From IMG/VR virus record IMGVR_UViG_3300024999_000040, positions 84,717 through 148,716 of that record: a stretch of 64,000 nucleotides of DNA; one strand, 5' to 3'. This document shows positions 11,272 to 64,000 of the stretch, piece after piece. The position numbers and the translations under genes were made by a program. The stretch's first letter is position 1, and every line of letters begins with the position of its first letter. The notes beneath the pieces were generated by a model. It saw nothing but the letters and a program-made list of their open reading frames with translations. It was not told where the DNA came from and did not search any database. This DNA is from a virus.

Positions 11272-11310
11272 GTTTAACCTCCTTTCATAAAACCCAATAA
11301 ATTGTCTCTT

Positions 11311-11604
11311 CTATTGGCTAATTAATTTTCTTGGTTCTGCTAACTTATCCATATTAATATCAGGTACAAATGTCAAAGCTTCCGCAACAGCATATGAACC
11401 ATCTGGATTCTTTTGCTGTGTAGTTACCTGAACTATGCAACCATTGGGTAAATTACATACCTTAGTTGATTTCATCCAACCCTGTTCCTGACTTGAAGCT
11501 TTACACAATAACGCAAATGTATCTCCATCTCCATATACCTTCAAATCAGATATATTTGCTTTTGCTCCCTTTACTTCTGATATGTCTAACATTTTTTCTT
11601 GCAT
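11311..11604 (-). CDS. Hypothetical phage protein
   Basis: Clean ORF with RBS; GWMKSTK...GCIVQVTTQQ...AEALTFVP. Confidence 0.6.
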   Translation of the reverse strand: MQEKMLDISEVKGAKANISDLKVYGDGDTFALLCKASSQEQGWMKSTKVCNLPNGCIVQVTTQQKNPDGSYAVAEALTFVPDINMDKLAEPRKLISQ

Positions 11605-11621
11605 TGTTTTTCATTCTCCTT

Positions 11622-12038
11622 TCATAATAACCAATTAATTTCTTCCGACAATCTTACATCTGATTCTGGATTAATAATCTCATGAAGAATTATTGTTAAG
11701 ATTCCATCTGCTATTTTATAAGTTACCTTATTGTAAATGGTATAATCTACTGGCAAGTTTATATTTATTTTGTTTTCAAAACCAGTAAGTTCATCAACAT
11801 ATTTACCTTCCACAGTAACAAAAAGTGTCTTGGTCTTATTAATGAAATTTTTCTTAACAATAATATGATTTCCGTTCAAACCAATCAATTCATACTGAAG
11901 TATTTTCTTGTTATCTTTTTCAATTGTCTGAATTGGTCTATCTTTACTATTATCAATAGTGATATCATATGGATTAAAATTATAAGTTGCATAACTTATG
12001 CCATGAGTATGACTGCCATCATAAAGTGTATTATCCAC
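11622..12038 (-). CDS. Hsp20/alpha-crystallin-like small heat shock protein
   Basis: Beta-rich domain ending INLPV...YKIADGILTIIL, resembling the sHSP 'xxxGvL.I' motif. Confidence 0.55.
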   Translation of the reverse strand: MDNTLYDGSHTHGISYATYNFNPYDITIDNSKDRPIQTIEKDNKKILQYELIGLNGNHIIVKKNFINKTKTLFVTVEGKYVDELTGFENKININLPVDYTIYNKVTYKIADGILTIILHEIINPESDVRLSEEINWLL

Positions 12039-12421
12039 TACTCTTCATCCTCCATATCCTTTTCGTCTTCGTATAAATCTTCATCCTCGTCAGATTCAAT
12101 TTCATTACCGCTATCAAGAACTTTTAAAGTACCTTCCTTAATACTCAATACAGACCATATTTCTTCATAATCCATTCCAGTAGGTACTATCTGCAATTTA
12201 GTCTTTTCCTTTTTGCCTTTGACCTTCAGTATCAAACCTTCTTTGATCTCAGAGTTCTCAGTAATAAAGGAAATCTTATCACCTTCCTGAACCTTTATTG
12301 TATTACCATCAAACTCAACCTCAAATACATTCCATGCTTCTTTTGGGTCTACCTTTAGTGTCTTTTCTTTTCCATCAATGTTCATATCAATCAACTTGTA
12401 TGAATTCGTAACATTAATCAT
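12038..12421 (-). CDS. Hypothetical protein with acidic tail
   Basis: ORF track; coupled to the downstream gene. Confidence 0.6.
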   Translation of the reverse strand: MINVTNSYKLIDMNIDGKEKTLKVDPKEAWNVFEVEFDGNTIKVQEGDKISFITENSEIKEGLILKVKGKKEKTKLQIVPTGMDYEEIWSVLSIKEGTLKVLDSGNEIESDEDEDLYEDEKDMEDEE

Positions 12422-12798
12422 TATGTATTAATCTCTTTCTGTGGATTCACCACTACTTATTTATTTTTATATTTGATATTGATTTACTAAGTGATTCTGA
12501 AATATTATTTTTCTCGTTCAATATTAAAATCATAGCTTCTTCTTTTGAAAAACCTACTGAAATATACGCATCATACTGATTTCTTTTTGCTATTGCCACA
12601 GTCTCAAAATAATCCGTATTATTAGCAAAGTCTTTATAAACTACAAGCAATTCATTAGCAATTGAATATGCCAATGGTTTATACTTGCTTATAAGTTCAG
12701 AAATCATTTCCTTTGCCAAATCAGGATCTTCCATTAACATTACTAAAATATCATTCATATTTTTTCTCCTTTCCTTTATTATATTTACTCACTTAAAC

Positions 12799-12960
12799 CT
12801 ACGCCCTATATCCGCAATGATTAATAAGATAATCCATTGCCGAACATGCTGTCAGACCTTTCAAACCTACTTCTTTCTTTAATATTATTCTCTTACCTGA
12901 AATTTCTCCACCGCTGGACGTAACTAAAGATACTGCCTGTGATTCTGTGAATTTCTTCAT
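12799..12960 (-). CDS. Small hypothetical protein (53 aa), not in the ORF track
   Basis: AGGAAGG RBS; MKKFTESQAVSLVTSSGGEISGKRIILKKEVGLKGLTACSAMDYLINHCGYRA*. Confidence 0.65.
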   Translation of the reverse strand: MKKFTESQAVSLVTSSGGEISGKRIILKKEVGLKGLTACSAMDYLINHCGYRA

Positions 12961-13292
12961 GTGATTTTTACCTTCCTTTTCTACGTATTATTTTATTTTT
13001 GTTTACTGATTGACTGAAATAACCCTTACACTACCACCAAAATATTTATTACAGATATTGATATAATTTACTGGATAGTGAGCAAACAAGTAATCACCCA
13101 CTGAACTCCATGTTTCACTTACCCTACCTTGTAAAATTTTTACTTTTGCTTCTTCCATGAAAAAACTAGCCTTTTGTGAATCTGAATACTTTTCCTTGTG
13201 CTCCGATTTATGTTCTGCCATTATGTATTTTCCTACCTTTCATATTATTATATTTACTTAATTTAAAAATTGAGCGTATTCGCCTTAATTAT

Positions 13293-13738: not shown

Positions 13739-14194
13739 TCACTTTATTATTTTCTTAGACAAACATTTACTACCATATCTATTGCCTATTATATAGCCAT
13801 ATTTTTTAAGCCCATATTCATAAACATTTCTTCTTCGATTATCTGTCCAATGAATAATAATTACATCATCATTTCTACAAAATTCAGAATCTTCAAAATC
13901 AAGTAGTTGTCTTTTAGCCCATAATAAACCTTCTAATCCACACCTTCCTACTTCTTTATCTGACAAGATATCTCTTTGCCCATCAATTAATTGTTTTATA
14001 TGTTTTTTCTTATTGGCTATGGCTACAAATACTGAATATTCATCATTACTTTTACACTCATATCTGAATAGATAAATAGCTATTGTTTGACCATTGGAAA
14101 GTTTTTCAGTTTTAAAATAGCCATGTGATTTATTATCACCATCAAATTTAATTCTTTCAAAATCTTTAATGTTTATCACCTCACTTTTGGACAA
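13739..14194 (-). CDS. Hypothetical protein
   Basis: ORF track; true start probably slightly downstream, after a GAGGTG RBS. Confidence 0.6.
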   Translation of the reverse strand: MSKSEVINIKDFERIKFDGDNKSHGYFKTEKLSNGQTIAIYLFRYECKSNDEYSVFVAIANKKKHIKQLIDGQRDILSDKEVGRCGLEGLLWAKRQLLDFEDSEFCRNDDVIIIHWTDNRRRNVYEYGLKKYGYIIGNRYGSKCLSKKIIK

Positions 14195-14216
14195 TGAAAA
14201 TGAAATTTTATTGGGT

Positions 14217-16788: not shown

Positions 16789-18242
16789 TACTTATACTCC
16801 TTTCATTAAACATATATATCCAACAACAATCTTTCAAAATACTCTTTAACTCCACCATTAGTTGTTACAGAACTTTTAATAACATCCATCAATTCTTCAC
16901 CAGTGAATTTTCTATCTTTATATTGATTTAGTGTCTTATAAAGAAAATACATTCCCTGTGCTACACCTAATGAATAATATTGATGTTCCGTAGATTTTTC
17001 AAAAATTTCATGATGTATTTTTTCTGATTCATACTTTTCATAACCCATTCTTATTAAAGTTTTTCTATCCATAACTCTCCTTTCATTAATCCAATAAAAC
17101 TGTCACTTCATTGTAAAAATAAATACTTAAGTTTACTTTCTATTATTTTTATTAAGTTATTATCTTTGGGAATAGTACAATTATAAACTTCAGCACTACT
17201 ATTTTCAAACCAGTTAATTCCTATAAATCTTCTACTGTCTATACACTTATATACTAATTTTTTATTATGAGTCCACATCTTAATAGATCCATCTTCATTT
17301 TTATGAAAGCATATTTTCCAATTACAAAAGAAAGCAGCAACTTCATAATATGAAAAACTAATAAATTCTTGGTATGTAGTGAAAACTTCTTTTGGAACAT
17401 TAATTAAAATATCCATTATTGTTTTATTCCTTTCAGACGATAAAATTGTAATATCATGGGGTTGATTTACTATTATTTTTCATAAAGAATTCTTTTGGTG
17501 TCATTTTTGTAGCAGTAAAATTAATTATGTTTGGATTTTTTAATAATCTTATTGCTTCTTCTAATGTAACATCTTTACCTTCCATAGTAGTAATCAAGGT
17601 AGATGATTCAGCAATTTGAAATTTGATCTTTTTGAACATTTATGTATTCCTTTCTTATTTAACTTCTTCTATATATTCTCCGTCAACTTCTTCTTTACAT
17701 GAAGGGCAATAAAAGTAACCATCATCTTTATAGCTCATTTTCACCAAGTCTTCTCTATCATCGTAGTTAAAACTAGTTTGGCAATCCCATTCTTCAGCAG
17801 TATGTATTTCTTTGCATTCTGGACATTTAAAATTACTCATTATTATATTCCTTTCACTTAGATACAATTTTTACCTTATATCCTAACATATGTTCAATTT
17901 CTTCAATACTTAATTCTTGTGGTGTATCATCTATATCTTCTACATACTCTTGAACTAATTTAAACCACTTTGAATTTTCTCTTACACTAGCATGAAAAAT
18001 AATTGCATCTCCTGTCAATCCACAGTTACCTTTTCCTGAATAACAACCACCATTTTTAGTCCAACATAATTTTAAACATCCTTCAGCTAAACTACCATGT
18101 ATATCATCTTCTTTATCCCAATAAAATATTGCTCCTGCATCTATTCCAGGAATATCTTGTAACAATTCATAAAAATTATAACTTCCGTCTAATGCTTTTA
18201 CTCCCATATTGTTTTCCTTTCCCAATGCAATCATAGTTTTAA

Positions 18243-18833: not shown

Positions 18834-21294
18834 ATTATATTACCTTTCTTATTTAATTTTCTCAATACTTTAAAAATTCTAATTGCCTTATTCTCATCCT
18901 TCTCTTCCATAGCCCAATCCATTAATTCTTCAATTAAATCAGGAATAAATTTTGTAAAAGTAAAAGTACACATATTGTCCATTCCAGTAGGCATAATCTC
19001 TCCTTTCAACCAATTAAAATCTTTGCTTTTATTATAAGTTACTCTTTATCTTTTTCAGTAATGGTATAAATATTACTGTCCTGACTTATAATTCTATATT
19101 TTTCATTAAACTCATTCATTTTAACTGTATTGCTTATGATTACTTGATATTGTGTATATGAAGTTCTACTAAAATAACTATAAAAACCTCCAAACGAAAG
19201 AAGTCCAAACAATATAGTAAAAAAGAATAACATTGCTCTAATATTATTATTATTATTATTATAATCTCCTCTAAAATCTTCAAAAACTAACCATAAAAGA
19301 AATAAAGTTGCAAGTCCTATTAATATACCTAAAATTAAATTTTCAATTCCTGATGTCCACTTAACTGTCTCATTTAAAACTTGAATACCTTTCATCATAA
19401 TATTATATATCCTTTCTTAAAATCCTTTGAAAGACTTATTTTAATTACTCATCATTCAAATATAATTCCGCTTCAGTTTTAGTTGAATAAAGTTTTTGTG
19501 CTGGAAGACATCTAGGATAACTCAAATTGTAACTTTCATGATATTCATTTATAAAAATATCATTTACAATACTTCTATGTATCTTCTTTACTTGTTTATT
19601 TGGTAATCTACTATTACAGCAAGAACAAGTCTCGCCGTATTCTGTTTCTTCTTCAATAAACCAAACGGTATCACCGATATTAAATTTTGTTTTATAACCT
19701 TCACTCATTTTTATATTTCCTCCATTAACTTAATCAACTCTGGATGCCACTTATCAATAAATCTAGTAAATTTTGATTGTTTTATATACTCACCATAGCT
19801 TTTAGATTTAGAAACAATATTAGACCCGTAGAATCCATATGCTATTCCTGTTCGTATGTAACTATCATTTTTATTAGAACTTATCATAATCCAAATTAGT
19901 TTATCCATTTTGTAAGCTGGTTCAATTCCAATATAAAATGATATACCATCTTTTGATTCATTGATTTGAAAATCACATCCATCAAACTCTGAAAAATATA
20001 ATGGTATTACATCTTCACAGATTTTCTTTAATAGTTCATTAATTTTCTCGTTTTCACTCCATTGATTATTAAGCAAACATTTATCAGGATTACCCAAACC
20101 TATACTAGTAGCCATACCCAATCTATGTCTCATAGTTTAATCTCACCTCACTTTAAAATAACTGTTTCATTGGATTTATTCTTCATCTTCCAATAAGTCT
20201 AAATTATAATCAAATTTATAAGGTTCTCCTGCTACTACCTTAATCGTTAACTTTCTATTTTCTAGAGATAGAATAATTATTCCATCGTTGAATACCGCAG
20301 AAATTTCATCACCTTCTTCAAGTTTTTGGTCTTCTCCGTATTCTTTTTCAAATTCATCCATTATCATTCCAATTGCTTTATTAACAGTTTCCATCATTTA
20401 ATTTCCTCCTTATATGCCTTTGGTTCAATTCCAAAACCATGCCCTATTCCAATACCTTTCTTACCAACAAAGAACAAAATGCCTTGTTTTGCATCCCATA
20501 TCCCAAATTTCCTATTATCATCTACTTTAGAGCAATATATAAGTGCTATTCTCCAAATCCAAAGTATATGAAAATCTCCATGTGTTTTTGTGAATATTAA
20601 TGGTCTTTTCATATTTTTACCTCAAGTTAATCTTAATAATATCTAACAAAACAAATCCCACAAATATACATCCTGTTCCTAAAAAGAATGGTATTACTTT
20701 ATACAACAATGCTGAAACAAAATTCTTAGTGTTTTGAACAAAACTACCAATTATGTAATAAACTCCTGCTATTATCGAAATCCACGCACATAAAATTGTC
20801 ATATTTTATATCTCCTTTCTCTTATTTTACCCAATGAAATGAACGATTCATCGTCTTTCCTATTTAACCCTTTTTATTTCTCTTTTAACTCTTTCAACTT
20901 TCGGCAATTCCATAAACAATTCATTCGCCATCTCACCATAAACACTTAATATATCAGCTTGTTCTTTTGTTGATCTTCCTTGTAAATCTGCAAGAATAAG
21001 TTTTCTGATTCTGTTTTCATGAATTGATTTCATTTATGTATCCCCTTTATTTAAGTGATATTTTGTCTGCTACAAAATCAACAAAAGCAAACAGATTGAA
21101 TAATAAGACAGCTAGAATAGTAACTGGTAGAGAAATCAAAGCAAAAATCATCTGCTTCTTGGAAAGTCTTTTATTCAATATAAACCAATCATATGTAATC
21201 CAATCGTATTTCCACATCCACATCATTGCTGAAATCATAATCCAAATAACCAAAATCAAAGTTATAATACTCATACTATATCTCCTTTCCTTCA

Positions 21295-21990: not shown

Positions 21991-22010
21991 AACTCACTTC
22001 CTTGTATATT

Positions 22011-22039
22011 ATTATACCAACTTAGTTAACGTTTGTCAA
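22011..22039 (-). promoter_or_regulatory. sigmaA promoter with TTAACTAA spacer motif
   Basis: TTGACA-aacgttaactaagttgg-TATAAT. Confidence 0.85.
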
Positions 22040-27379: not shown

Positions 27380-27749
27380 ATTCCTTCTCCTTTAATTTAC
27401 CACATGAAATTTGTGTTTTATTGTTTTTCATTCCATTTTTCAAATTGTTGTAGCATATCCAAGCTATGATAACAATCCATTGGTACTTTTAAAGGTTCAC
27501 TCTGATCATACCATTTATCTACTTGTAAACTTTTGTGTGAATTTCTCATACAAAAACAACAAGGTCTTTCACCACTAGGTATTCCAGGAAAGTCTGTGCC
27601 TTCTACCAATTTACCATCTGTATATGTACAATAAGCTGCTGAATGAGAACAACCATAGCATATTAATGGTTGATTGTTTTCATCTTTGACACAATCATTT
27701 AATCTTTTTAAAATATCACTCATATATTACCTCAACTTTTCTATCTATT

Positions 27750-27778
27750 ATTATATCACCTTAGTTAACCAAAGTCAA
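27750..27778 (-). promoter_or_regulatory. sigmaA promoter with TTAACTAA spacer motif
   Basis: TTGACT-ttggttaactaaggtga-TATAAT. Confidence 0.8.
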
Positions 27779-42170: not shown

Positions 42171-42579
42171 TATTTATATTCTCTCTTTCTATTTGTTCTA
42201 CAGCATTTAATAAACATTCATATGAAGATTGAAGTCCTGATCTATCATCAAGCATTATATTGTAATAAATTTTTCTACCTGTAAACTTTATAAAGTCAAA
42301 ATTATTATTTATTCTATCAAACGGAATATTATTACTATATAAATAATCTTTGATTTTTCCATATTCATCTTCTCCACAACATGTGAATACTACAAAATAC
42401 GCTCCAGCCTTATCGTATCTTTGTAGTAGTGAGATTACATCAGTATAAGTTCTGCCTTTCTTCCAGAAATCAAATACAGTATCATCGAAATCATAAGCAA
42501 TAATAATCTTACCGTATTTCTTCCATTCCTCTATAAGTCTATTAATTACATTTTCATTATTTAAATAATAATCCATCAT
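42163..42579 (-). CDS. HAD-superfamily hydrolase
   Basis: IAYDFDDTV (DxD), VFT, KIYY...LDDR. Confidence 0.75.
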   Translation of the reverse strand: MMDYYLNNENVINRLIEEWKKYGKIIIAYDFDDTVFDFWKKGRTYTDVISLLQRYDKAGAYFVVFTCCGEDEYGKIKDYLYSNNIPFDRINNNFDFIKFTGRKIYYNIMLDDRSGLQSSYECLLNAVEQIERENINNE

Positions 42580-43406
42580 CCAATAACTCCTGTTCCTTGA
42601 ATAGGATATATCTTTATTCTATCATTCAATTCTTCAGTAATAATACTATTTGTAGTATATACTTTGTTAATTAAATCGGTTTTAAATATATCACCTTTGT
42701 AAATTGAATCTTCAGCATGACCAATTACAAGATATACTTCTCCAGCTCCAAGTTCTATTAACTTTCTAGCTCCTAACATGAATGTACCACCATAAGAAGA
42801 TAAATCATCTATCATTATTACTTTAAAACCTTTTGACTTAACTTCTCCAAGGACTTCAAGGCTTGTAATTTTGCCTGTTTGAAAATCTCTATGTTTAAAT
42901 CCTACTAGAGAATTTTTAACTTTAATCATTTTACTATACCTTTTCTCACTACCAGCATCAGGGAAGTAAATATAATCCTCATCCTCATTAAAATTCATTC
43001 TAACCTTAACATCAGATAGAATATTAACAGATGGAAAACTGATCTCACAATTATTGAGTAATGCAGGTGTAACATCAGAATGAGGTTCAATTACCGTTAC
43101 TTTTTCAAAATTAAGTTTATTGATAAAGTCTGCTACATATTTTAATGTGAAAGCTGAACCACCTTCAGACCTATCCATTCTACTATATGGCATATAATAT
43201 ATTACCAATTCAGATTGCTTTTTAAGTATGTCCAAATAGCGTTTAACAAACATAAGTTTAATTAAATTACTATCATTCTCATATTTAAGAGAAACGACAT
43301 TCATTCCTCCTGTTTCTGCATTATCTCTTATCTGTTTTTCATTCATCTTTGTTTCTCCATTTGGGAAAGTTTCAAATCCTAATGGAATTGAGTTTAAAAA
43401 TATCAT
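42576..43406 (-). CDS. PRPP synthetase homolog (likely Adps of NARP1)
   Basis: FPNGE, YMPYSRMDR, EPHS, FPDAGSEKRY, IDDLSSYGGTF, TTNS. Confidence 0.92.
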   Translation of the reverse strand: MIFLNSIPLGFETFPNGETKMNEKQIRDNAETGGMNVVSLKYENDSNLIKLMFVKRYLDILKKQSELVIYYMPYSRMDRSEGGSAFTLKYVADFINKLNFEKVTVIEPHSDVTPALLNNCEISFPSVNILSDVKVRMNFNEDEDYIYFPDAGSEKRYSKMIKVKNSLVGFKHRDFQTGKITSLEVLGEVKSKGFKVIMIDDLSSYGGTFMLGARKLIELGAGEVYLVIGHAEDSIYKGDIFKTDLINKVYTTNSIITEELNDRIKIYPIQGTGVIG

Positions 43407-43433
43407 ATGTAACCTCCATAAATTTATACTATT

Positions 43434-43462
43434 ATTATACTTACTTAGTTAAGATTTGTCAA
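43434..43462 (-). promoter_or_regulatory. sigmaA promoter of the NAD operon, with TTAACTAA motif
   Basis: TTGACA-aatcttaactaagtaag-TATAAT. Confidence 0.85.
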
Positions 43463-45377: not shown

Positions 45378-45646
45378 TTCTTCTCCTTTCTATTACCTTA
45401 CAAAATATGGAATTCGTTGACTTATTCTTCATCATCATCTTCCTCATAAACACTTTCGGCAACATCCATAACTTCAATATATGTTTTGCCTTTCATCCAA
45501 TCCTTAATCTGATTTTCTATATCTTTATACGAATCTCCAGTAAATTTAATTGCATTATATGCACTTAATTTATTTACAGAACAATAAATAACCCAACATG
45601 TTTTCATATTATATTTCCTTTCTTATATGTCTATGAAACCAACATT

Positions 45647-47199: not shown

Positions 47200-48432
47200 C
47201 TAACCTACCTTTCTCCTCTCAGTTAATAAACTTTTTCTTCTCTCAATTAATTTGAAAGATTTACAATTAACACTACCTTTGTTTACTTTAGTACCATCTA
47301 AAGTTCTAATATCAAAGAAACCAGTGTTTCTTCTTCCAAAGATATAATATAGCTTCCCTTGGTATTGAATCTTATCAAATAATCTAAACCCTTTTACCTC
47401 AAATTGCGCTTGATTTAACTTCTTAATTCCACATTTTAATATATTCGCTTTATGGATCTGTCTGTTGTGGCATCTTACTTTCTTATAAAAGTAATAATAG
47501 TTTAATCTTTTAACTAATGGATTGCCACTTATACATAAAGCATCAATCCTATGTTCTTTTGGTAATTTATTCTCAATTCTTGTATTCTTAGTTATATAGC
47601 CATAAGTTAATGTTACATTAGGATATATTTCTTTTAACTTATTATAAAATGCCCAACGCATTATTCCCATAAAAGCCGCATCTTTGAATGATTTACCACG
47701 CTTTAAATTTAATTTCAATTTGCCATTATGATAATCTTCATGACATTCTTCACATAAGGTAATCAGATTACTTGGTGCATCTCCACCAGTTTTTCTTGAT
47801 TCAATGTGATGTACATTTAATATTTTATTCTTACATCCTTTTTTGCCTTGACATTTATGCCCATCTCTAAATAGTACATACTCACGTACATTCCAGAAAT
47901 CTAATTGATTGCCTTGTTGATATTCTTTTCCTTGTATTTCTGGATTATTTATTTTCTGTATATCAAAACTTGCTACTTCAACTATTATTTTAGATATAGG
48001 TAATATCTTATAAATCTTATCAACAATACTTAAATGTGTTTGTATTTTGTTTTCAATACTAGGTGCCAGCCATCCTTTGTTTTTACTACCAACACGATTT
48101 AAAAATCTAGGTTCCCTATATCTTAATCTATTTCTTCTAGTACGTCTATTTTGTCTGCGTGTAGAAAGCAAATCCACAATATCATTTCTTAATTCAACTT
48201 CTGATGAATATAGTTCTTGTTTTTCAGTAGTAGCAGATAAGCCTATTACTTTGCTTCCTGCGTCAATACCTAATGTAATATCTTGAACTTGATTCTCACA
48301 TTCAAAAATTAGTTGAATAGTGAATGGTTCTTTTTTAACAACTCTTGCCAGACTGTCTCTGAGCAATTTTCTTGCTTTTGCTTCTTTGCAAGGCATTATA
48401 GGTTTACCTTGAATGTTTAATACATATACCAT
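47200..48432 (-). CDS. iscB: IscB RNA-guided endonuclease
   Basis: PIMP (PLMP domain), LGIDAGSK RuvC-I, RRQNRRTRR bridge helix, IIVE, HHI...SNLITLCEECH HNH, HRIDA RuvC-III. Confidence 0.95.
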   Translation of the reverse strand: MVYVLNIQGKPIMPCKEAKARKLLRDSLARVVKKEPFTIQLIFECENQVQDITLGIDAGSKVIGLSATTEKQELYSSEVELRNDIVDLLSTRRQNRRTRRNRLRYREPRFLNRVGSKNKGWLAPSIENKIQTHLSIVDKIYKILPISKIIVEVASFDIQKINNPEIQGKEYQQGNQLDFWNVREYVLFRDGHKCQGKKGCKNKILNVHHIESRKTGGDAPSNLITLCEECHEDYHNGKLKLNLKRGKSFKDAAFMGIMRWAFYNKLKEIYPNVTLTYGYITKNTRIENKLPKEHRIDALCISGNPLVKRLNYYYFYKKVRCHNRQIHKANILKCGIKKLNQAQFEVKGFRLFDKIQYQGKLYYIFGRRNTGFFDIRTLDGTKVNKGSVNCKSFKLIERRKSLLTERRKVG

Positions 48433-49595: not shown

Positions 49596-50549
49596 CTATT
49601 TATGGGATTTAAACACTAAATAATTTTCCTTTAGAAGCCCCCATGTCTCAGGATTCATACCTGAAATTTTCAAAACCTCATGATAGTCTAATCGTCCTAG
49701 TTCACCTTTTTCAGATTCAATCTTTTCTAGTTTTTCAAACATTCCTGAATAAAAAATATTTGTCGAATTAATGTAGTATTTTTCTGTCCATTTTTTTATT
49801 TTATCAAATTTTACATAGATTCCATGATCACTTATAGCATCCCCTACAGTATTATGCATTTTTATAGGTCTTATTACATATGGAGAATCCATTAATTTTC
49901 TTGTTGGGGCTTTAGCTTCAGATTCACCATTATTGTTATAATATATATCTTCTTCTATTGCTTCTTTAAGTATATCCATTGTCCGTTGATCTATATTTGC
50001 AATAATTCTTGGATTATTACTATAACGCACTTCAATGAAATTACTAATAAATTTAACATCTTGTTTTTCAAGATAACGCACTTCCTTCATTTCTTCACCG
50101 TTAAGTCCTTCATAAAATGAAACCAACAATGCTCTATCGACTGGATTAGCGAGTTTATCACACAATTCATATAATTCATCTCTATTCTTTATATGTTGAT
50201 TACTAGCTGCATCCTTGTTAATATATAATTGTAAATCCTTTCTAAATATATTCATAAAAGCTGTATTAGGACTACAATAACCTTTTTTTGTTACCCATTT
50301 AACATATTGTTTAGCATAATGAAAATTTCTTCCTAGAGCATTAACAGTGGGACAGTTCATATATCGTAACATATCTTTTACTTGGTCTTCATTAAAATCA
50401 TATAAATCTTTTTTAAAACTTTCTTCTACTTCTGCTATCTTATCAAAAGTATTTACTATTGTTTTTTGAGTGTCTACATCATAATAAAATTTGTCAATAA
50501 ACATTTTTTTGGTTTCTTTTGAAGTTTCTTTATTATATGAATTATACAT
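49596..50549 (-). CDS. MrpR/YopR-like repressor (degenerate tyrosine-recombinase fold)
   Basis: E...KKDLYDFN N-terminus; LLVSFYEGL in place of TGxR; no HxxR; NIFYSG; follows a YopQ-like gene as in SPbeta. Confidence 0.7.
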   Translation of the reverse strand: MYNSYNKETSKETKKMFIDKFYYDVDTQKTIVNTFDKIAEVEESFKKDLYDFNEDQVKDMLRYMNCPTVNALGRNFHYAKQYVKWVTKKGYCSPNTAFMNIFRKDLQLYINKDAASNQHIKNRDELYELCDKLANPVDRALLVSFYEGLNGEEMKEVRYLEKQDVKFISNFIEVRYSNNPRIIANIDQRTMDILKEAIEEDIYYNNNGESEAKAPTRKLMDSPYVIRPIKMHNTVGDAISDHGIYVKFDKIKKWTEKYYINSTNIFYSGMFEKLEKIESEKGELGRLDYHEVLKISGMNPETWGLLKENYLVFKSHK

Positions 50550-51885
50550 TTATAACACCTACCTTCTTAAAATGCTCACTGATTTTTTTAATTAAAGAAT
50601 TATTGATCTTATCACTAGATATACCAACAGATTTCCAATCATAATCATTAGAAAAATCAATAGAATTCAAAATATTTTCCAATAATTCTTTCCAGTTTTC
50701 TTCTTTAATTAATATTGAAACAAGTGCTACATAACCAATAAATATATTATTTTCAAAAATTACACTGTTTTCTTTTGTATATTTCTTTTTAAGAGTAATT
50801 AAAATTTTATTAAAGCATCTAATTAAAAAATCTTGTGCTTCTTCTATTTCCTCCGCATTTTCAAATTTTCCAAAATTATATCTAATAGCCTTTTTTAAAG
50901 TTTCAATAGTAGTGAATTTTCCTTGTACTTTTAAATCAGAATCATCTTCAGCAATTTTGTAATACATCTCATTTTTAGTTGAATTACCATATTCATTTAT
51001 TTCTTTAATCATTAATACATTTTCATCTCTGTTGTCATATCCTTCTCTATGACTTTTTTGCATAGGGGTAGCTTTTTCTTCTCTATTTAGATAAGATTGC
51101 GCTCTCAATTCACTAAAATTAAATATTTTAATATGAAAATATCCAGGATTACTTGGATTTTCACTTATACACCTTTCTGCCGCTAACCATCTATGCATTC
51201 CATCAATTATATCAAGATAAGTATTTTCATTGTCTATCCATATAGTTAAAGTTCTGTTTTTCTCATTGTATTCAAATTTTTGTTCACGATTAAGTTTTCG
51301 TATATTTAAAGATAACATATTGGCTTCAAAATTAGTTTCCATCATTTCAGCTATATCTATGATCTTATTTTGATTTATAGTCGGCATTTTTTGATATTCT
51401 CCACCAAACGAAACTAAAGTAGGTTCTCTTTGAGTTCTTTCATTATAATATAATAATCCTTGACCTCTTAATGCTTTCATTTCAGGATAAGCAAATCTTG
51501 GACATAAATATTCAAAATCAGAAGTTTTAGATACATCATAAAAAATAACTACATCGTTTTTATAATGCTCGTCTTCTTCCTTTTTATATTCATTGTATGC
51601 TGTAATTTCAAGAGGATTAAACCAATCATTAGGATTAATCCTTTCATAAGTGGTAGTTTCATATAAAGCCTTTACAAATAAATACAAAACTTCATCTGAA
51701 ACACTAGAAATTAAAACTTTATCTACACCATACATTCCTGTGATTGTTCCAAGATTTATATTATGTTTCTTTAGTGAGTCTAAAATATACTCTCTATTTT
51801 TCCACTTGTTCTCTTTTGATTCTTTAATCGCTTTATACAGCGTAATTTCAAGTTCTTGTCTGTCTTTTTTCATTTTTATAATCAT
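50542..51885 (-). CDS. DGQHR/DndB-like ParB-fold protein (SPbeta YopQ-like)
   Basis: YNERTQR...IIDGMHRW; 447 aa; overlaps the start of the MrpR-like gene. Confidence 0.65.
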   Translation of the reverse strand: MIIKMKKDRQELEITLYKAIKESKENKWKNREYILDSLKKHNINLGTITGMYGVDKVLISSVSDEVLYLFVKALYETTTYERINPNDWFNPLEITAYNEYKKEEDEHYKNDVVIFYDVSKTSDFEYLCPRFAYPEMKALRGQGLLYYNERTQREPTLVSFGGEYQKMPTINQNKIIDIAEMMETNFEANMLSLNIRKLNREQKFEYNEKNRTLTIWIDNENTYLDIIDGMHRWLAAERCISENPSNPGYFHIKIFNFSELRAQSYLNREEKATPMQKSHREGYDNRDENVLMIKEINEYGNSTKNEMYYKIAEDDSDLKVQGKFTTIETLKKAIRYNFGKFENAEEIEEAQDFLIRCFNKILITLKKKYTKENSVIFENNIFIGYVALVSILIKEENWKELLENILNSIDFSNDYDWKSVGISSDKINNSLIKKISEHFKKVGVINV

Positions 51886-51984: not shown

Positions 51985-52656
51985 TTACACAGCATATTGT
52001 AATCTTAATACTTTTTGTGGAGAAGTTATAATTTTATCATTATTATATTCCTTTAGCATTTGTAAATAATTTTTACCATAATCATTGCAATAATCAATTA
52101 CATCTCTTAATAACAACTCTCGTGCAAACATCAATCCTTCATTTGATATTTTTTTAGCACAGGTATTAACGCTTACATAAGCAGCAATCATTTTTCTTAA
52201 TATTACAGGATTAAAACACAAATCAATCATACCTAATTCTTTCTTTAGTGCTGATTCAACTTGTTTCATTGTAGCATCACTTATCTGACCTACTTTAATC
52301 AATTCTCCACCAATGAGTAACCTTCTCTTAGATATACACCTTGTTTGTTCAATTATAGATACCGATTGCTTGTATAGTCCTGTATCAGTCTCAAGAAATA
52401 CATGAGTAGGAAGATATGAACCTTTATCAGTTTGTGTCGTAAGAGGACATCCAACAATAGTAGAACTTTTTTCATTTCCCTTGTTATTTTGGGTAATTAA
52501 AAAAGGCCTTATACCTCCCTGTTCTTGATCAAGAACAGTACCCAAATCAACCATGTAAATTTCTCCACGTTTAACTTTAAGGTTAATTAAATCTTGAACA
52601 TTATTAGTCCTTGTATTTATATTTGTAATATAGTTCCTTGTTAATACTTTTGTCAT
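51985..52656 (-). CDS. mazF: MazF/PemK endoribonuclease with C-terminal extension
   Basis: KRGEIYMVDL...EQGGIRP...QNNKGN...PLTT...HV...EQTRCISKRRL. Confidence 0.88.
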   Translation of the reverse strand: MTKVLTRNYITNINTRTNNVQDLINLKVKRGEIYMVDLGTVLDQEQGGIRPFLITQNNKGNEKSSTIVGCPLTTQTDKGSYLPTHVFLETDTGLYKQSVSIIEQTRCISKRRLLIGGELIKVGQISDATMKQVESALKKELGMIDLCFNPVILRKMIAAYVSVNTCAKKISNEGLMFARELLLRDVIDYCNDYGKNYLQMLKEYNNDKIITSPQKVLRLQYAV

Positions 52657-52724: not shown

Positions 52725-52830
52725 CAGTATTAGTATATTTATTTTGTTAAAAATAATATACCAATAAAACTCATCTTTTATTGTCCTCCTTTTTCTTTTA
52801 TCTTCTGCAACCTTTCCTGATATTGCGCGG

Positions 52831-53163: not shown

Positions 53164-54084
53164 TTATACATTAGTTTTCTTTTTATATGGTATTTTTCCC
53201 GCCATTGCTTTTTGACGCTTTTCAGAAGCATGAAGATATATCTCTGTAGTAGATAATTTGGAATGACCAAGAGCTTCTTGTATAGATCGTAGGTCTGTAT
53301 CTTGTTCAAGTTGTAAAGTTGCATAAGTATGTCTTAATATATGCGGAGTGAAATTCTTTAATCCTAGCATATCTTTGTACTTATTTACCAAGTACCTAAT
53401 ACTGTCGTAAGATAACGGATAAGGCTCTTTTTCAGTATAATGATAAATTACAAACACATTTTTATAACTGGTTTGTGGTCTTATTAATAGCCAATTATTA
53501 ATAGCTTCAATAGTATCATCATCAATAAATATAACTCTATCTTTATTACCTTTAGCTTCTCTTAAATGTACTCTATCATTTCGTATATCATCTAATTCTA
53601 AATCGCAGATTTCACTAACACGCATTCCAGTGTTTAAAAATAGTTTTATGATAGCAATATCTTTTTCATTTCCTTCTTTTTCTACTGCTTCAATTAATTC
53701 ATTTGCAGTTTCAAGATGTAAATAATTTCTAGTTTTTTTAGGTAACTTTGGTTTTTTGATTTGTAAAGCTAAGTTATTATTAATTAGTTTTCTATCATTT
53801 AAGTAATTAAGTAATGACCTCAAACACGAAACTTTCCTGCTTTCTGTGCCAGCATCGTTATTTAAAGTTAATCTCCATTCTATAGTGTCCTCTAATGTTA
53901 AATTTTGAAATATATCAATAGTAATTATATCAGTTTTTTTATACTGTTTTAACCAATTACAGAATGCACATAAAGTACCTCTATAAGATATAATTGTTTT
54001 GTCGCTGGCTTTATTAACAATCATAGATTTTAGAAAATTCTCTATGAAAGTTGATAATGTTAAATCTTTTTTCTGTTTTACCAT
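53164..54084 (-). CDS. XerC/D-like tyrosine recombinase
   Basis: TGMRVSE (R), KGNK (K), PHILRH (HxxR), LGH, TTEIY (Y) all intact. Confidence 0.93.
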   Translation of the reverse strand: MVKQKKDLTLSTFIENFLKSMIVNKASDKTIISYRGTLCAFCNWLKQYKKTDIITIDIFQNLTLEDTIEWRLTLNNDAGTESRKVSCLRSLLNYLNDRKLINNNLALQIKKPKLPKKTRNYLHLETANELIEAVEKEGNEKDIAIIKLFLNTGMRVSEICDLELDDIRNDRVHLREAKGNKDRVIFIDDDTIEAINNWLLIRPQTSYKNVFVIYHYTEKEPYPLSYDSIRYLVNKYKDMLGLKNFTPHILRHTYATLQLEQDTDLRSIQEALGHSKLSTTEIYLHASEKRQKAMAGKIPYKKKTNV

Positions 54085-55688
54085 TTAAAATCACTCTCCC
54101 TATAAAACCAGAATTTTATTGCCTACATTTTATCATTCTTGGCTTATCAACTGAATATATTTTACCACATTCACATTTAACTTTCTCTGCATCAGTAGTA
54201 TAAATAAAATAAGCCTCTAGTTCTTCCATACAATTTTCGCATCTAAATTTTAATATCATATACCAACCTTCTTTATATTATTATATCAATTTACTTTAAT
54301 TGTGTCAATAACATTTTTGTTTTTAAAAGATTCTTCTGTGTGAAAACTTTTGCATGTTGTTGCATCATATAAAGCCAATCCATCAGGTTTACAATATTCA
54401 GTATTATATAAATAGCATTTCCCTTTACATACTTTATCAAGTAATTCTTCTTTACTAATCATTATTTCCATTGGTTTATTCATAATTTGCTCTTTATAAC
54501 ATTCTAGTGCTTTGTTAAAACCTTCTTTATATCCATCAAAATATCCTTGCTGATAAAATTCATGATGTTTTATTGCCTCTCCCATAATAAATTCTCCTTA
54601 ATATAAAATCTACATTTTATTTTAATTCAAAAACATAATCTTCAATTCCATTTAAGAACTCTGTTGATATATTATCCAATGAATTGACTTCCCAAATATA
54701 ATATACACACTTAGCATCTACGCTTCCAAAAATTAATCTTGCATCAACATTAAACTGTATTTTTGCAAATATTGATATATTCTTATCTTGTATTTTTTCT
54801 ATATTTATTGCAATAAACAAATATCTATTATTATTAATTTTAATCCACTCGCTATTCCCTTTAATTCTCATTTAAACAACCTCCTAAAAGTATTCAAAAT
54901 GTCTATTTTGTTGCCCTACATTTCTCACTTAACTCTTGTTCTTGTTTCCACCATAGTTCTATGTGATTGGCATATTTAGCAAGTTTATAATTTATATTTT
55001 TATTAATCAATATTTCTTTTAAAATTTTGTTTCTAACCACATTATAATATATTATCATATTAATCAATCGATTCTGGTAGCATAGTATCCATATCTATTG
55101 GAGGTAAATTTATAGAGCCACAATAATCCTCGTAATTCAATGGACAACTCTTACAATCCAAACCCTTATCTGATTTAATTCTTTCACAAATTTCTTCTCT
55201 TGCTTGCGCTATATTTATTAATCTTTGTCTTAGATATTTTTTATCTCTTTTAGTTAACATCTTAGCACCTCGTATTCTTAAATCGCACTAACAAAATTAT
55301 CTCTCAACTTGCAATCATTTGGTACATAAGATTCTATTACTTTTAACACGTCTTCCATCATTTTTATAGATTGATCACGTTCTATACCATATAAACTTCT
55401 GAGTTTACCAATAGATATCTGTCCTAATAGACATAAACCCATAACCTCAAAATGATTAAGGTTACTAATATTAAGAGGTAATTCATGTAGATATTCAATT
55501 TCTTTACTGTGATTATAATAATCCATGATTATTTTTCTTCCTCTCCAATTTCTTTATAAGCAGGGCAATCCACTACCCAAGGAGTCATTTGATATCCATC
55601 ATGCTTGATGTAAATAGCACAGACACACATTTTACCTGTAAGATTACATTTAATAGGATGTAACTCTTTATCTTTGAGAATATTTGCA

Positions 55689-57047: not shown

Positions 57048-57743
57048 AAATGTTCACAACCCTTTATTTTCTTTAAACCTAATGCTTGCATGATACCTAT
57101 TGTTCAACACATAAATATCATGATTCTCAATGTCATTAAATACTTGTTGTATTGCCATCGGTTTATTTTCATAAACTTTATGCAAGTGAAAATCTGGTTT
57201 ATCTATTTTAAACATATCATAGTAATCTTTAACATTAATAGTACTTATACTCATATTTAAATGAAATAAATGTTCTTTATTATCTGATAATACCAATATC
57301 CAATGACCAAACCTAGATACAATACTTGCTACTTGATTCTCAATATTATATGAATATCTGAATATCTTACATTTTTGCTTTATTTTATTGTTTCGTTGCA
57401 ACTTTTGATTACGAGTAAGATATTGAAGAACGATATTCAAAATATCGGCAATCAAACAAAAGTATTGACATTCTCTAGCTTTAGTTAATCCTATAAGCAA
57501 ACCATTTTCAAAAGAATTATAACACCAAGGATAAAATATGCCACCAATATTAACATTTTTATAAAAATAACAATTACAACATTTTTTCATTTAAAATTAT
57601 TTCCTCAATCACCTTTATAATATTTATCCAACGTCTTATCTTTCATTCTCACACCTATTACATCCTGCACAAGAAAAGCATAAAGTTTGAGGTAAAAATT
57701 GTGGATATTGTTTCATTAAATTCCTCCACATAATTTAAGTATT

Positions 57744-57779
57744 TTGAAGGTTATTCAAGTGATACCTACAAACACTTTA
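57744..57779. repeat. 36-nt dispersed repeat, copy 2
   Basis: TTGAAGGTTATTCAAGTGATACCTACAAACACTTTA. Confidence 0.85.
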
Positions 57780-58889
57780 TTACATTTATATTGGCAAGTT
57801 GTAAGATGTCCCATCCTTACAAAATTAAACTAATGAAAACTACCTTTTATTCAAACTTCAAATTTCTTAAATTATCAAGTTGTTTTTCAATGCTTTTTAT
57901 TTTATTTTGCTTTATTTTCTCTGCTTTTTTAATTGCATTTTCTCTAGTAAGATGCCAATCCTTACCTTTACCATGATAATAAGTAGGAAATCTAGTTCCC
58001 TGTATTTCTATCATATCTTCTGATACTGTATCACATATATTTGCATCTTTTTCAATGATACCCTGTGTCAATGCATATTTAGTTATCCATACTTTCATAA
58101 CTTACCTCCAAAATATTTATTCATACTCTATCAACAAATCTATTTTATCCCCTATATCACTCGAATGAGCATGAAATTTAAATCTATCTCCAAATACATT
58201 CCAATCATGCATCTTATCTTCAACAAAAACTGTAATCCAATGACGAAGAACTAAATTATCTAAACTTTTTTCACATGGTTCTCCTGTTTGTGGATTAAAC
58301 TTAGCATACATTTCTTCTTCATTAAGAATTGTATAAACTCTCTTGATGGTTTTACTTTCTAATCCTAGTTCTTTTAGTGTTTTATATTCGCTGTTGATAA
58401 TATTTCTTACAATCATTCTCATACTAATTTTCTCCAATCCCCATAAAAGCCATTTTTCATCGACTTATTCCTGATTTAATATTTCTTCAATCTTTCTTAT
58501 TTTATCATAATTTTTACAATTTCTTACCATTTCAGAAATTTTATAATGATTATCATTCATCCAGCACAATTGATTTACTTGTTCTTCTGAAGTATAAAGA
58601 ATACCATCATGACCATAACCATAGGTATAAGTCAATGTCTTTTTATTAACCTTGTAATTACTTTTACTGTCTGTATTAGAATATTCACTTCCTACTATCC
58701 AACTTTGTTTGGTTTCTCCTAAAATAATCTGATCTTTAAAATAATATTTAAACCAACATCTATCTAGTTTATTTCCTTTATCATCATGATATTGTCTTCT
58801 ATTACTATCAAATATCCAAACTTTATCACCTATTTGCATTTTAACCTCCTAATTATTTCCAAATGAAATCGAGATTTTATAGTCTTTTA

Positions 58890-61785: not shown

Positions 61786-62126
61786 TTTAATACACTCCTT
61801 AATTTTATTTTGTTTGTTATCTGTTTGTTATTATATGTACTTTGTTAAAAGTCTACGAAAGTGTTGATTTATTTGGTTAATCAAAATCTGGAACTGTTAT
61901 CTGTTTTGTTTTTTTTGTAAATTCTGTAAAACTACATTTTTTACAACTTCTTTCCCATCCATTTTCTTCATTTTTTATAAGCATTCTAATATCAGACGAA
62001 CCAATATAACAAAATGGATTAGGAATTTCTGTTACAATTTTTGCTTTAATTGGTTCTGAAAAATCATGTATACAATTCATATTAATTATCCTCCTTCACC
62101 ACATTTAATATCATTTCCATGTACTT

Positions 62127-62155
62127 ATATTACTATATTTATTTAGTTAAGTCAA
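62127..62155 (-). promoter_or_regulatory. Probable sigmaA promoter with TTAACTAA overlapping the -35
   Basis: TTGACT-17-TAATAT. Confidence 0.5.
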
Positions 62156-62174
62156 TGGGTTTATGAAAATAATT

Positions 62175-62885
62175 TTAAATAACCACTTTCTCAAAATCTA
62201 AACTCTCCGTATCAATTACCCAGCCTCTTAATAAATGCTTTTCAGGACTACAAGCACAGTTAAATACACCTGTATTACCTATACTCTTAACTCCAAAATC
62301 TTCATGTATATGACCACACAGCCATAGTTTAGGTTGCTTCACTTCTATGAAATCTCTAACCGATTTACTACCTACTTTTACACCTCTATTTGTCATATCC
62401 AGACAATCATATGGAGGATCATGAGCTACTATAATAGTATATGAATCAACAGGAAAATTATCATGAAGTTTACTTAACTCATACCATATTTTATTTTCGT
62501 TTGCTTCTCTATTTGTATTAAATGGAGTAATGTGAACGAATTCAAAGGATAAAATCTCATAATTACACCAATAATAATCTGGATAGTTACTAATACGTTT
62601 TTCCTTATTCGACTCAAACCAATCATCGTTTCCCAGTATATGTAAAACATTTGGAAATTGCTCAGTAAAATAATTATATTGGTCTTTCTGATATTGTCCA
62701 AATTCAATTAATGACCTAGCATTTTTATCTTTGCCTCCAATATCACCGCAATGGATTACTAAATCAAAGGTATTTTCAATTGTGAAGTCTTTAAGTTTTC
62801 TCAGGATTACTCCATCGTTGTGAGTATCACTGGTTACAAATATTTTCATATTATATCTCTTCCTTTCTAAAAGTGTTTGAATCAT
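62175..62885 (-). CDS. Calcineurin-like metallophosphoesterase
   Basis: SDTH, HCGD, GNDD, AHDPP, CGHIHE. Confidence 0.88.
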   Translation of the reverse strand: MIQTLLERKRYNMKIFVTSDTHNDGVILRKLKDFTIENTFDLVIHCGDIGGKDKNARSLIEFGQYQKDQYNYFTEQFPNVLHILGNDDWFESNKEKRISNYPDYYWCNYEILSFEFVHITPFNTNREANENKIWYELSKLHDNFPVDSYTIIVAHDPPYDCLDMTNRGVKVGSKSVRDFIEVKQPKLWLCGHIHEDFGVKSIGNTGVFNCACSPEKHLLRGWVIDTESLDFEKVVI

Positions 62886-62895
62886 TGTTTATTGC

Positions 62896-63495
62896 CTATT
62901 CGAACTTTTTATCGTCAATTTCTCTCAATTCAAAAGACACTTGATATTTTTTCGACTTTAAAATTATTCCACCTATACTCATGATTCTCTCTTGTAATTC
63001 TTCACCTGACATTTCACTAACTAATCGCATCATAAACTTGGAATCGATAATTTCAGGAACAACTTTCTTTTCTTTAACTTTAATTTCTTTTTCCATTAGT
63101 TTTTCCTCGTTTCGATTTTCTTTAGTTTTTTTAATTTCTGCATCCCTAAGTTTTTTAGCTCTATAGTACATATCATGAATACTTTGAACTTTGACCTGAA
63201 AATGTTCGGCTACAGATTTTCTAGTACTAAATTTTTTAATCAATGCTTCAATTGCAATTACTCTGTCCTTATTAGAAAGTTTTAATAATTCTTGATAAGT
63301 AATATCGTCATATAAATTAGACATAAAAATACCTCCATTCAATCTATCTTTTTGTTTTTTAGACAAATAATCGGCAGGAAATAGTATTTTATTAGAATAT
63401 ACTCTATTCTTTCGATATTTAATATTTCTGCCGATATTTTTCTTTTCTCTAACTTCATCATAAAACATTTTCTCAATATTGTCTATATTGTCCAT
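62896..63495 (-). CDS. Hypothetical protein, possible HTH
   Basis: RKSVAEHFQVKVQSI. Confidence 0.5.
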   Translation of the reverse strand: MDNIDNIEKMFYDEVREKKNIGRNIKYRKNRVYSNKILFPADYLSKKQKDRLNGGIFMSNLYDDITYQELLKLSNKDRVIAIEALIKKFSTRKSVAEHFQVKVQSIHDMYYRAKKLRDAEIKKTKENRNEEKLMEKEIKVKEKKVVPEIIDSKFMMRLVSEMSGEELQERIMSIGGIILKSKKYQVSFELREIDDKKFE

Positions 63496-64000
63496 TATGT
63501 TTTCCTTTTTGAAGTATGCCTATATTTTATATGATACACTATTTTATAGATATTGTGAATGCCTGTATATCAACAAATTATTTGCTTTCTCCATTAAATA
63601 TCTTCTGATTTCTTTTATTAATTTCATCTACCTTGTTTTCAATTTTTTGTTTATTGCCTGATACAAAATCAATTTCAACACCATTATCATTTTTAAAATT
63701 AACTCTTATATCAATTTCTCCTTTACGTTTATAAACTGAATACCCAAATATATTTCCTTCAGCAAGATATACTCTTTTAGCAAGTCCATCTAAAGCTACA
63801 TAATAAACATGTTCTCCAAATTCAAATGGCAATTCAATATTCATCATGTTTTTATCCTCCATTCTTATATACTATAAAATCCGTCTTTCATTTTCCTTTT
63901 AAATAAGTAATCCTTTTATTGCTGTGCCGATTAATACTAAACTCAAAACACTTAAAAATCCAAATTCTTTATACCCATATAAATGATGTACATATATTTT

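Follow-up and report, generated by a model that had tools for sequence, protein, structure and literature searches.

A dispersed palindrome at gene junctions of an SPbeta-like groundwater phage, a possible joint for module exchange

Overview

A short palindrome, ATRAAA-N6-TTTYAT, is repeated at the junctions of about 40 small genes in a 64,000-nucleotide stretch of phage DNA, positions 84,717 to 148,716 of the IMG/VR record IMGVR_UViG_3300024999_000040. This whole stretch is referred to here as the window. It is the last 64 kb of a single-contig record of 148,716 base pairs (bp) with 28.9% G+C, and the phage belongs to the wide SPbeta-like group. The palindrome is real, and it is a double-stranded DNA element. 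With a probability of roughly 0.45, it is a protein-recognised, dif-like junction element that is used as a module-exchange joint in the SPbeta-like supergroup. A sequence-only reading of the window had noticed the palindrome and interpreted it as an operator array or as an integron-like cassette system. Overall, that interpretation is partly supported.

SPbeta serves as a model temperate phage, and its repression system (SroD, SroE, and SroF/MrpR) is actively studied. The palindrome is a second dispersed element of SPbeta and is far more widespread. Its range includes phages of Bacillus, Geobacillus, Staphylococcus, and Clostridium as well as uncultured groundwater and gut phages, and no description of it was found in the literature searched. 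The palindromes are found at the edges of the mosaic blocks that underlie the variability of these 130-190-kb genomes. If a protein binds the palindrome, that protein would either drive modular gene exchange in a large phage group or be a part still missing from the lysogeny circuit, where no sites are assigned to SroE and SroD.

Enrichment of the Palindrome

The pattern was initially given as ATRAA-N8-TTYAT. It occurs 24 times in the window, where 4.4 copies are expected and the largest count in shuffled sequence was 12. The bases that flank the N8 center are a conserved A and a conserved T, so the true spacer is 6 bp and the layout is ATRAAA-N6-TTTYAT. The sequence-only reading was right that the spacer has a fixed length and a variable sequence, and its length of 8 bp is corrected to 6 bp. 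The exact pattern is found 25 times in the whole genome (1.25 expected). Only 0-2 copies, the background level, are seen with spacers of 4, 5, 7, or 8 bp, and the enrichment is confined to 6 bp. The sequence of the spacer is different at each site of the genome.

The palindrome was said to lie at accessory-gene junctions, and this is confirmed. Intergenic DNA contains 22 exact copies, compared with 0.21 expected from a composition-matched intergenic background, and the largest of 200 simulations gave 3. Coding DNA (124 kb) contains only 3. It had been cautioned that AT-richness inflates chance matches. Chance and AT-richness are ruled out as an explanation by the intergenic excess over the matched background and by the scarcity of copies in coding DNA.

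A position weight matrix (PWM) extends the consensus to about 28 bp. It reads a-S-n-C-A-ATRAAA, four to six free bases, and TTTYAT-t-G-g-g, and each arm is about 11 bp long. With 12 bits as the minimum score, the PWM finds 68 sites in the genome, 39 of those in the window, and Markov null sequences give 1-6; it was trained on the sites of the sequence-only reading, so the count of 68 is partly circular and counts of the exact pattern are the cleaner test. With its two inverted arms and a center of variable sequence fixed at 6 bp, within the 6-8-bp class of central regions, the palindrome has the geometry of dif/Xer sites. The earlier description of a tyrosine-recombinase site geometry is upheld.

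Of the 32 positions first listed, 29 are recovered by the PWM. The others are 36339, which is weak, and 54603 and 57833, which have exact cores with weak flanks. Ten further sites in the window were absent from that list (10537, 13101, 18225, 22478, 26733, 35172, 39371, 52764, 54894, and 59810). Two of these, 10537 and 13101, fall in coding sequence and are doubtful. The site at 52764 is intergenic according to the public gene calls of L004. The window sites are given below without a strand and with their PWM scores. Each is a junction palindrome unless described otherwise, and "added" marks those absent from the first list.

11297 to 11314: 27.3 bits, intergenic, arm overlaps the upstream stop
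14194 to 14211: exact core, 23.4 bits
17094 to 17111: exact match to the N8 pattern, 14.8 bits, stop inside arm
17440 to 17457: 18.2 bits, stop inside arm
18225 to 18242: added, 21.7 bits, intergenic
19427 to 19444: 20.1 bits
20153 to 20170: 24.0 bits
20834 to 20851: 31.0 bits
22478 to 22495: added, exact match to the N8 pattern, 22.8 bits
23518 to 23535: 15.1 bits
26733 to 26750: added, degenerate, 15.8 bits, stop inside arm
27404 to 27421: exact core, 19.8 bits
28156 to 28173: 24.6 bits
32807 to 32824: 28.5 bits
34896 to 34913: exact core, 20.2 bits
35172 to 35189: added, degenerate, 16.2 bits
35685 to 35702: 23.5 bits
36162 to 36179: degenerate, 16.7 bits
36339 to 36356: weak candidate from the first list, <12 bits, poor right arm
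36777 to 36794: 17.7 bits
37139 to 37156: exact core, 12.9 bits
37563 to 37580: exact core, 25.9 bits
38623 to 38640: 28.2 bits
38902 to 38919: degenerate, 17.1 bits
39371 to 39388: added, degenerate, 15.7 bits
40167 to 40184: exact core, 31.4 bits, directly downstream of a -10-like element
45400 to 45417: 22.0 bits
45633 to 45650: exact core, 23.2 bits
46422 to 46439: exact core, 26.9 bits, 31 nucleotides (nt) downstream of a consensus sigma-A promoter
52764 to 52781: added, exact core, 25.1 bits, between the stop of a 95-amino-acid gene and the consensus promoter of a MazF-like gene
54102 to 54119: exact core, 26.0 bits, 17 nt upstream of the Xer-like recombinase gene
54603 to 54620: exact core, weak outer flanks, <12 bits in the flank-weighted PWM
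54894 to 54911: added, degenerate, 12.8 bits
57833 to 57850: exact core, weak outer flanks
58443 to 58460: exact core, 27.5 bits
58863 to 58880: exact core, 26.8 bits
59810 to 59827: added, 17.0 bits
60001 to 60018: 28.7 bits
61855 to 61872: 19.3 bits
63874 to 63891: exact core, 25.3 bits

Placement Relative to Genes

The palindromes lie 0-9 nt past the upstream stop, or the TRA of the arm is itself that stop. The next start is mostly 16-26 nt away. The median gap is 45 bp at junctions with a site and 22 bp at the others, and the palindrome fills about half of each intergenic gap. Some copies are found after terminators, upstream of promoters, or in divergent promoter regions. The replication core (363-11271) and the nicotinamide adenine dinucleotide (NAD) operon (40265-45377) contain no convincing site, in agreement with what was first described. 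The copy that had been reported just upstream of a recombinase gene is also present, at 54102.

Two types of promoter were considered and rejected. The motif does not contain a -35/-10 pair at usable spacing, and only 4 of the 68 sites have a promoter within 120 nt upstream, so it is not a sigma-A promoter. It is also not a promoter for the YonO RNA polymerase. In SPbeta, YonO initiates at one site, upstream of yonK (PMC5467207), and at least 14 palindromes are spread across all SPbeta modules.

Distribution Across Phages

The exact pattern was counted in other genomes and compared with an expectation or with a control. For E3, c-st, the Staphylococcus SPbeta-like phage, and Tsamsa, the control was the same pattern with an N7 spacer.

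SPbeta: 14 copies, 0.9 expected
Provirus G009: 25 copies, 0.75 expected
Provirus G010: 64 copies, 0.55 expected
Geobacillus E3: 24 copies, control 0
Clostridium phage c-st: 14 copies, control 2
Staphylococcus SPbeta-like phage: 10 copies, control 0
Tsamsa: 21 copies, control 0
Perkons: 38 copies, control 2
Mammaliicoccus phi6255: 26 copies, control 0
Fecal scaffold MT835469: 18 copies, control 0
phiCDIF1296T: 2 copies, control 3, no clear enrichment
Lactococcus PMBT69: 1 copy, control 0, no clear enrichment
Brevibacillus Sundance: 3 copies, control 0, no clear enrichment

The sites are intergenic in 23 of 25 cases in G009 and in 60 of 64 cases in G010, often with the stop codon inside an arm. 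A scan of IMG/VR with the extended motif found many contigs with site densities that resemble that of this phage.

Relatives of the window phage were found by means of its ligase. One of these is L145, whose ligase is 67% identical. It has 24 sites within 22 kb, and they lie between genes that are all unrelated to those of the window. The palindrome is conserved in distant relatives that have entirely different accessory genes. L147 (ligase 66% identical) has almost no palindromes.

As a separate observation, the segments L147:1-21962 and L150:1-8547, with ligases 63-66% identical to that of the window, are both nearly free of palindromes, and their genes follow one another without gaps. The contrast between L145 and these equally distant relatives could expose a gene that accompanies the motif.

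Homology Breakpoints and Possible Module Exchange

The region from yorM to yotN was compared in SPbeta, phi3T, Goe11, Goe13, and Goe14. Homology breakpoints are present at 49 of 62 palindrome junctions and at 74 of 166 junctions without the motif (odds ratio 4.7), with counts that are not independent across genomes, a point to be held against an exchange joint along with those gathered below. Against motif-less gaps of at least 25 bp, the odds ratio is 3.3. At several junctions, identity starts at the first base of the palindrome or stops just past its last base. Three clean intergenic single-gene insertions were found in this family. Two begin 0-3 nt after a palindrome. The third is also downstream of a palindrome, inside a 14-bp ribosome-binding-site repeat that is duplicated. 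In addition, the edges of the blocks of identity between SPbeta and phi3Ts are at most 7 nt from palindromes.

A second lineage can be examined through L145 and L146, groundwater relatives of the window phage that are 99.985% identical over 6,649 bp. The match breaks off at base 17 of one palindrome and begins again 11 nt ahead of the next palindrome. Between the two palindromes, one genome has a gene for 146 amino acids and the other has two different genes. The gene downstream of the second palindrome occurs behind three upstream contexts that are unrelated to one another. These share one spacer sequence, whereas the left arm differs from context to context.

Judged from these alignments, homology blocks are bounded by the palindromes far more often than expected by chance. 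This holds for two distant lineages and for several time depths, and the half-site beside a module tends to move with it. The combination fits a module-exchange joint and does not fit an integron-like system in which each module is bracketed by two sites.

There are several observations that weigh against an exchange joint. None of the three single-gene insertions has a palindrome at its far end, and the other crossover of single-gene indels is at a ribosome-binding site or at a 14-bp direct repeat. One break is 45 bp upstream of a palindrome, and another is at a stop codon where no palindrome is present. Breakpoints are also common at motif-less junctions and inside genes. Because the palindrome occupies about half of the gap, the closeness of intergenic breakpoints to it is in part a matter of geometry. 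In the laboratory-evolved phage Hyb2phi3Ts-SPbeta, both crossovers are inside blocks of 1.4 kb and 4.9 kb that are identical in the parents, and this hybrid arose by ordinary homologous recombination. In related phages, breakpoints of gene gain, loss, or replacement are more frequent at palindrome junctions than at other junctions, which supports the sequence-only reading on this point, and many are found elsewhere. In a self-comparison of the genome, the ends of internal repeats did not coincide with palindromes. The window genes shared with G009, G010, and IMG/VR contigs gave no useful junction comparison.

A module-exchange joint could operate as follows. The palindrome sits in a short gap, after the stop or terminator of one gene and before the next ribosome-binding site or promoter. 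A dimeric phage protein would recognise it, possibly the recombinase-fold protein of the sro module (here the Xer-like protein encoded at 53164-54084). Over evolutionary time, the palindrome would serve as a joint for the swapping of gene modules between related phages. The arm that adjoins a module would move with it, and the spacer would remain with the slot. The exchange may either be catalysed in the spacer or result from short-homology recombination followed by selection. In the latter chemistry, the conserved arms and the ribosome-binding site would be the sole short homology between unrelated junctions, as has been proposed for PeSLs (PMC2839356).

The sro-like Operon and Candidate Binding Proteins

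All genes of the window are on the minus strand. An sro-like operon is present, and its genes are given here in the order of transcription.

53164 to 54084, minus strand: Xer-family tyrosine recombinase of 306 amino acids in the SroD/YopP position, candidate palindrome binder; Pfam Phage_integrase and SAM_1
51985 to 52656, minus strand: MazF/PemK-like protein inside the sro-like operon
50542 to 51885, minus strand: YopQ/SroE-like DGQHR (DndB) protein, second candidate binder; Pfam DndB (precomputed calls) and NCBIfam DGQHR
49596 to 50549, minus strand: MrpR/SroF-like recombinase-fold repressor, catalytically dead; MrpR_N_CB match

The sequence-only reading had described a dead MrpR-like protein and an intact recombinase, and both assignments are borne out. 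The MrpR-like protein is homologous to the solved MrpR/YopR and is without Arg I and the HxxR block. The recombinase has the catalytic R, HxxR, H, and Y. It matches the XerC, XerD, and XerA models over its full length, with scores under the equivalog cut-offs, and is homologous to the solved XerA, XerD, and XerH. The YopQ-like protein has homologues in SPbeta, G009, and G010, and a sequence search with it gave no solved homologue.

The recombinase-fold protein of the sro module is proposed as the best structural candidate for a binder of the palindrome. In SPbeta, E3, the staphylococcal phage, and phi6255, the YopQ-MrpR pair also has a recombinase gene upstream. There are points that weaken this candidate and the exchange joint with it. 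No recombinase is present beside the YopQ/MrpR pair in G009 or G010, though G010 has the most sites, and YopP of SPbeta has a lysine at the Arg II position. Likewise, no recombinase gene is found upstream of the pair in c-st. The Xer-like recombinase is not conserved in all phages that carry the motif, and a palindrome next to the SroD-like gene was not seen in the other phages examined.

The MazF/PemK-like gene sits between the recombinase and YopQ-like genes and has its own consensus promoter, with a -10 that ends at 52696. An antitoxin gene for it is not evident. In Clostridium phage c-st, a PemK gene is likewise directly upstream of the YopQ/YopR pair.

A Possible Regulatory Insulator

The palindromes could instead be an array of regulatory insulators, or roadblocks. 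A protein of the sro module would bind them in the lysogen and block read-through between genes. It would be the YopQ/SroE-like DGQHR protein or an SroD-like recombinase-fold protein and not MrpR, and the mosaic boundaries would be a by-product. This is unlikely, though it deserves serious consideration. Tens of sites are spread through all modules, and almost all are intergenic. Four genomes were compared in full (the window phage, SPbeta, G009, and G010), and the non-structural genes that they have in common are the YopQ/SroE-like and MrpR-like ones. The sroDEF genes are a signature of SPbeta-like phages, and the literature searched gives SroE no role. The motif is present in 10 of the 11 MrpR-positive phages tested and absent from 2 of the 3 MrpR-negative ones. 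The stoperators of mycobacteriophages are a precedent for such an array (PMC9283540). However, the co-occurrence is imperfect. Sundance has MrpR and only 3 sites, and the fecal scaffold MT835469 has 18 sites and no detectable MrpR or YopQ. The copies that follow terminators, precede promoters, or lie in divergent promoter regions leave little for a roadblock to stop. In addition, the palindrome is symmetric and stoperators are oriented.

Possible Site-Specific Recombination or Cassettes

Dedicated site-specific recombination is a more specific form of exchange. In SPbeta-like phages, a recombinase-fold protein would synapse dif-like junction sites of two relatives, either co-infecting or resident, whose 6-bp "address" spacers are identical. 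Modules would then be swapped between relatives with gene order kept, as in a slot-addressed phage counterpart of integrons and pdif modules. This version is improbable.

A true integron-like or pdif-like system, in which a recombinase excises and inserts cassettes of one or a few genes through the 6-bp spacer of two full sites, is more doubtful still. It is favoured by the 11-6-11 layout and by the intact Xer-family enzyme that is encoded. One replacement, that of L145 and L146, is flanked by two palindromes, and the arms vary with the module while the spacers do not. On the other hand, the single-gene indels have one palindrome only, and two of the breaks described above are 45 bp from a palindrome or have no palindrome. 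Each site within a genome has a different spacer, which would forbid exchange from one slot to another. Scores with the integron-integrase models are 88 and 54 bits, far below their cut-offs of 265 and 435. The motif also occurs without an accompanying conserved recombinase. The proposal of integron-like one-gene cassettes in the sequence-only reading is not supported, given the single palindrome of clean single-gene indels and the many breakpoints elsewhere.

The MrpR Operator and a Promoter-Embedded Box

It had also been suggested that the palindromes are the operator array of the dead MrpR-like repressor, by analogy with SPBRE. The window does encode an MrpR homologue, and MrpR and SroF bind dispersed sites in SPbeta and phi3T. 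This explanation is nevertheless very improbable. MrpR of SPbeta gave ten promoter peaks in chromatin affinity precipitation sequencing (ChAP-seq; PMC10516654). SPBRE, as derived here from those ten promoters, is ATACA, a conserved 7-bp center, and TGTAT, and it lies between the -35 and the -10 in the spacers of strong sigma-A promoters. The palindrome does not match the 15-bp SPBRE motif, and the two are separate elements in SPbeta, where the palindrome is enriched in its own right. The published peaks are at the SPBRE promoters and not at the 14 palindromes. In phi3T, SroF binds as a monomer to an asymmetric box of 26 bp (bioRxiv 2025.11.27.690993). SroF specificities vary among phages, yet the palindrome core is constant across very distant phages.

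The window phage also has a promoter-embedded box of its own. About 10 consensus sigma-A promoters share a conserved spacer, with the order TTGACA, 4 nt, TTAACTAA, 5 nt, and TATAATAATA. The copies in the window are as follows.

54276 to 54308, minus strand: consensus sigma-A promoter with TTAACTAA-type box, in front of the sro-like operon, proposed SPBRE analogue
43430 to 43462, minus strand: TTAACTAA-type promoter-embedded box
34366 to 34398, minus strand: TTAACTAA-type promoter-embedded box
27746 to 27778, minus strand: TTAACTAA-type promoter-embedded box
22007 to 22039, minus strand: TTAACTAA-type promoter-embedded box

Outside the window, copies are found at genome positions 22708, 50686, 66395, 71569, and 79769. 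This box is separate from the palindrome family. Its copy number and position match those of SPBRE, so it is probably the operator of the MrpR-like repressor. It is a better operator candidate for the MrpR-like protein than the palindrome. Telling the palindrome apart from the likely true MrpR-type operator should be useful for annotation.

Another element, of the GAATAAAAATAAAAT type, resembles the published 26-bp SroF box of phi3T. Copies are present in phi3T (L124) at 6569, 6830, 19876, 19963, and 23990 and in SPbeta at 113678, 120654, 129175, and 132761. Each is located either directly upstream of a -35 element or in the stretch from a palindrome to the ribosome-binding site that follows, and some are flanked by palindromes.

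A DNA Site Rather Than an RNA Element

The purine of the left arm and the pyrimidine of the right arm vary independently. On the sense strand, the combination A..C is found 21 times, G..T 16 times, and G..C, which is not favoured, 7 times. The same lack of covariation between arms is seen in proviruses G009 and G010. Independent half-sites at a fixed distance around a free center indicate a double-stranded DNA site, as is read by a dimeric DNA-binding protein. When 26-nt RNAs are folded, the mean is -2.1 kcal/mol, the arms pair in 35 of the 68 sites, and there is no U-run. An RNA hairpin or intrinsic terminator was rejected on the lack of covariation, the weak folding, and the missing U-run. 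The sites do not have the G+C-rich stem and trailing U-run of an intrinsic terminator.

An RNA-level element of any kind (a hairpin, a terminator, a processing site, or a translation linker in a polycistronic mRNA) has very little chance of being correct; it would suit the position between stop and ribosome-binding site and the annotation of two copies as stem-loops in the SPbeta record, but the A..C mismatch is as frequent as G..U, some copies are upstream of promoters or in divergent promoter regions, and a linker would not be expected to show strict symmetric spacing.

Other Features of the Phage

The 148,716-bp record is probably incomplete. CheckV gives a completeness of 76%, and the region is also present, at 99.99% identity, in a longer scaffold of 191,715 bp that comes from the same groundwater project. 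The phage encodes replication proteins, which include a DnaE-type polymerase, a DnaB helicase, and an NAD-dependent ligase. Known phages have polymerases only about 35% identical to this one. The phage collection contains no close relative by DNA. A search of IMG/VR with the MrpR-like protein also gave no close relatives, and the other contigs that carry it are the same phage at 99.99-100% identity.

A gene with RRXRR and HNH domains (window 47200-48432) has an inverted copy, 83.5% identical, 87 kb away (genome 44429-45879). A third, partial copy is at genome 24968-25172. The copies suggest a homing-type selfish gene family. A protein of 642 amino acids (window 43449-45377) has an intein with a LAGLIDADG endonuclease and is encoded directly upstream of the NAD-salvage genes, of which NAMPT is at window 40265-41749. 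A 48-bp repeat, 89.6% identical, is found at window 57733-57779 and 33671-33717. Outside the window, self-comparison showed diverged tandem repeats at genome 60025-60907, and their period is about 66 bp.

Comparison with Known Systems

The attC sites of integrons are imperfect palindromes after the 3' end of each promoterless gene, which is similar to the position of the palindrome described here. They differ in that they are 57-141 bp long, are read by IntI as a folded single strand, and bracket every cassette. The palindrome is 18-28 bp and has none of these properties. SPBRE (PMC10516654) is a dispersed repeat in the same phage family and is bound by a recombinase-fold protein. It is ATACA-N7-TGTAT with a conserved center and has about 10 copies in promoter spacers, whereas there are 68 palindromes and they follow stops.

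The stoperators of cluster A mycobacteriophages (PMC9283540) are also tens of short, dispersed, intergenic sites in a temperate phage. Unlike the palindrome, they are asymmetric, are oriented with transcription, and are the same as the operator of the early promoter. The palindrome is symmetric and differs from the promoter box.

In the pdif/dif modules of Acinetobacter plasmids (PMC6449649), a variable hexanucleotide separates two inverted arms of about 11 bp, as in the palindrome. Such sites occur many times in accessory regions with modules between them, and an Xer-family recombinase is encoded nearby. The difH and difSL sites (PMC2731167) share A-tracts in the inner arms with the palindrome, and difH is TGAAAA-N6-TTTTCA. 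However, the sequence of the palindrome differs from these sites. It has tens of copies per genome at single-gene spacing, every spacer is different, and indels often have one site. Bracketing of a module on both flanks, as with pdif, is seen in L145/L146 and not in the indels of the SPbeta family.

The PeSLs of T4-type phages (PMC2839356) are short, conserved, repeated intergenic elements between small non-essential genes. A PeSL consists of a sigma-70 promoter and a working terminator hairpin, whereas the palindrome is without a promoter and its hairpin is weak. The palindrome also has strict dyad symmetry, a free 6-bp center, and conservation in phages of many Firmicute genera. PeSLs bound insertions, deletions, and replacements between close relatives, and the palindrome is found at such boundaries as well.

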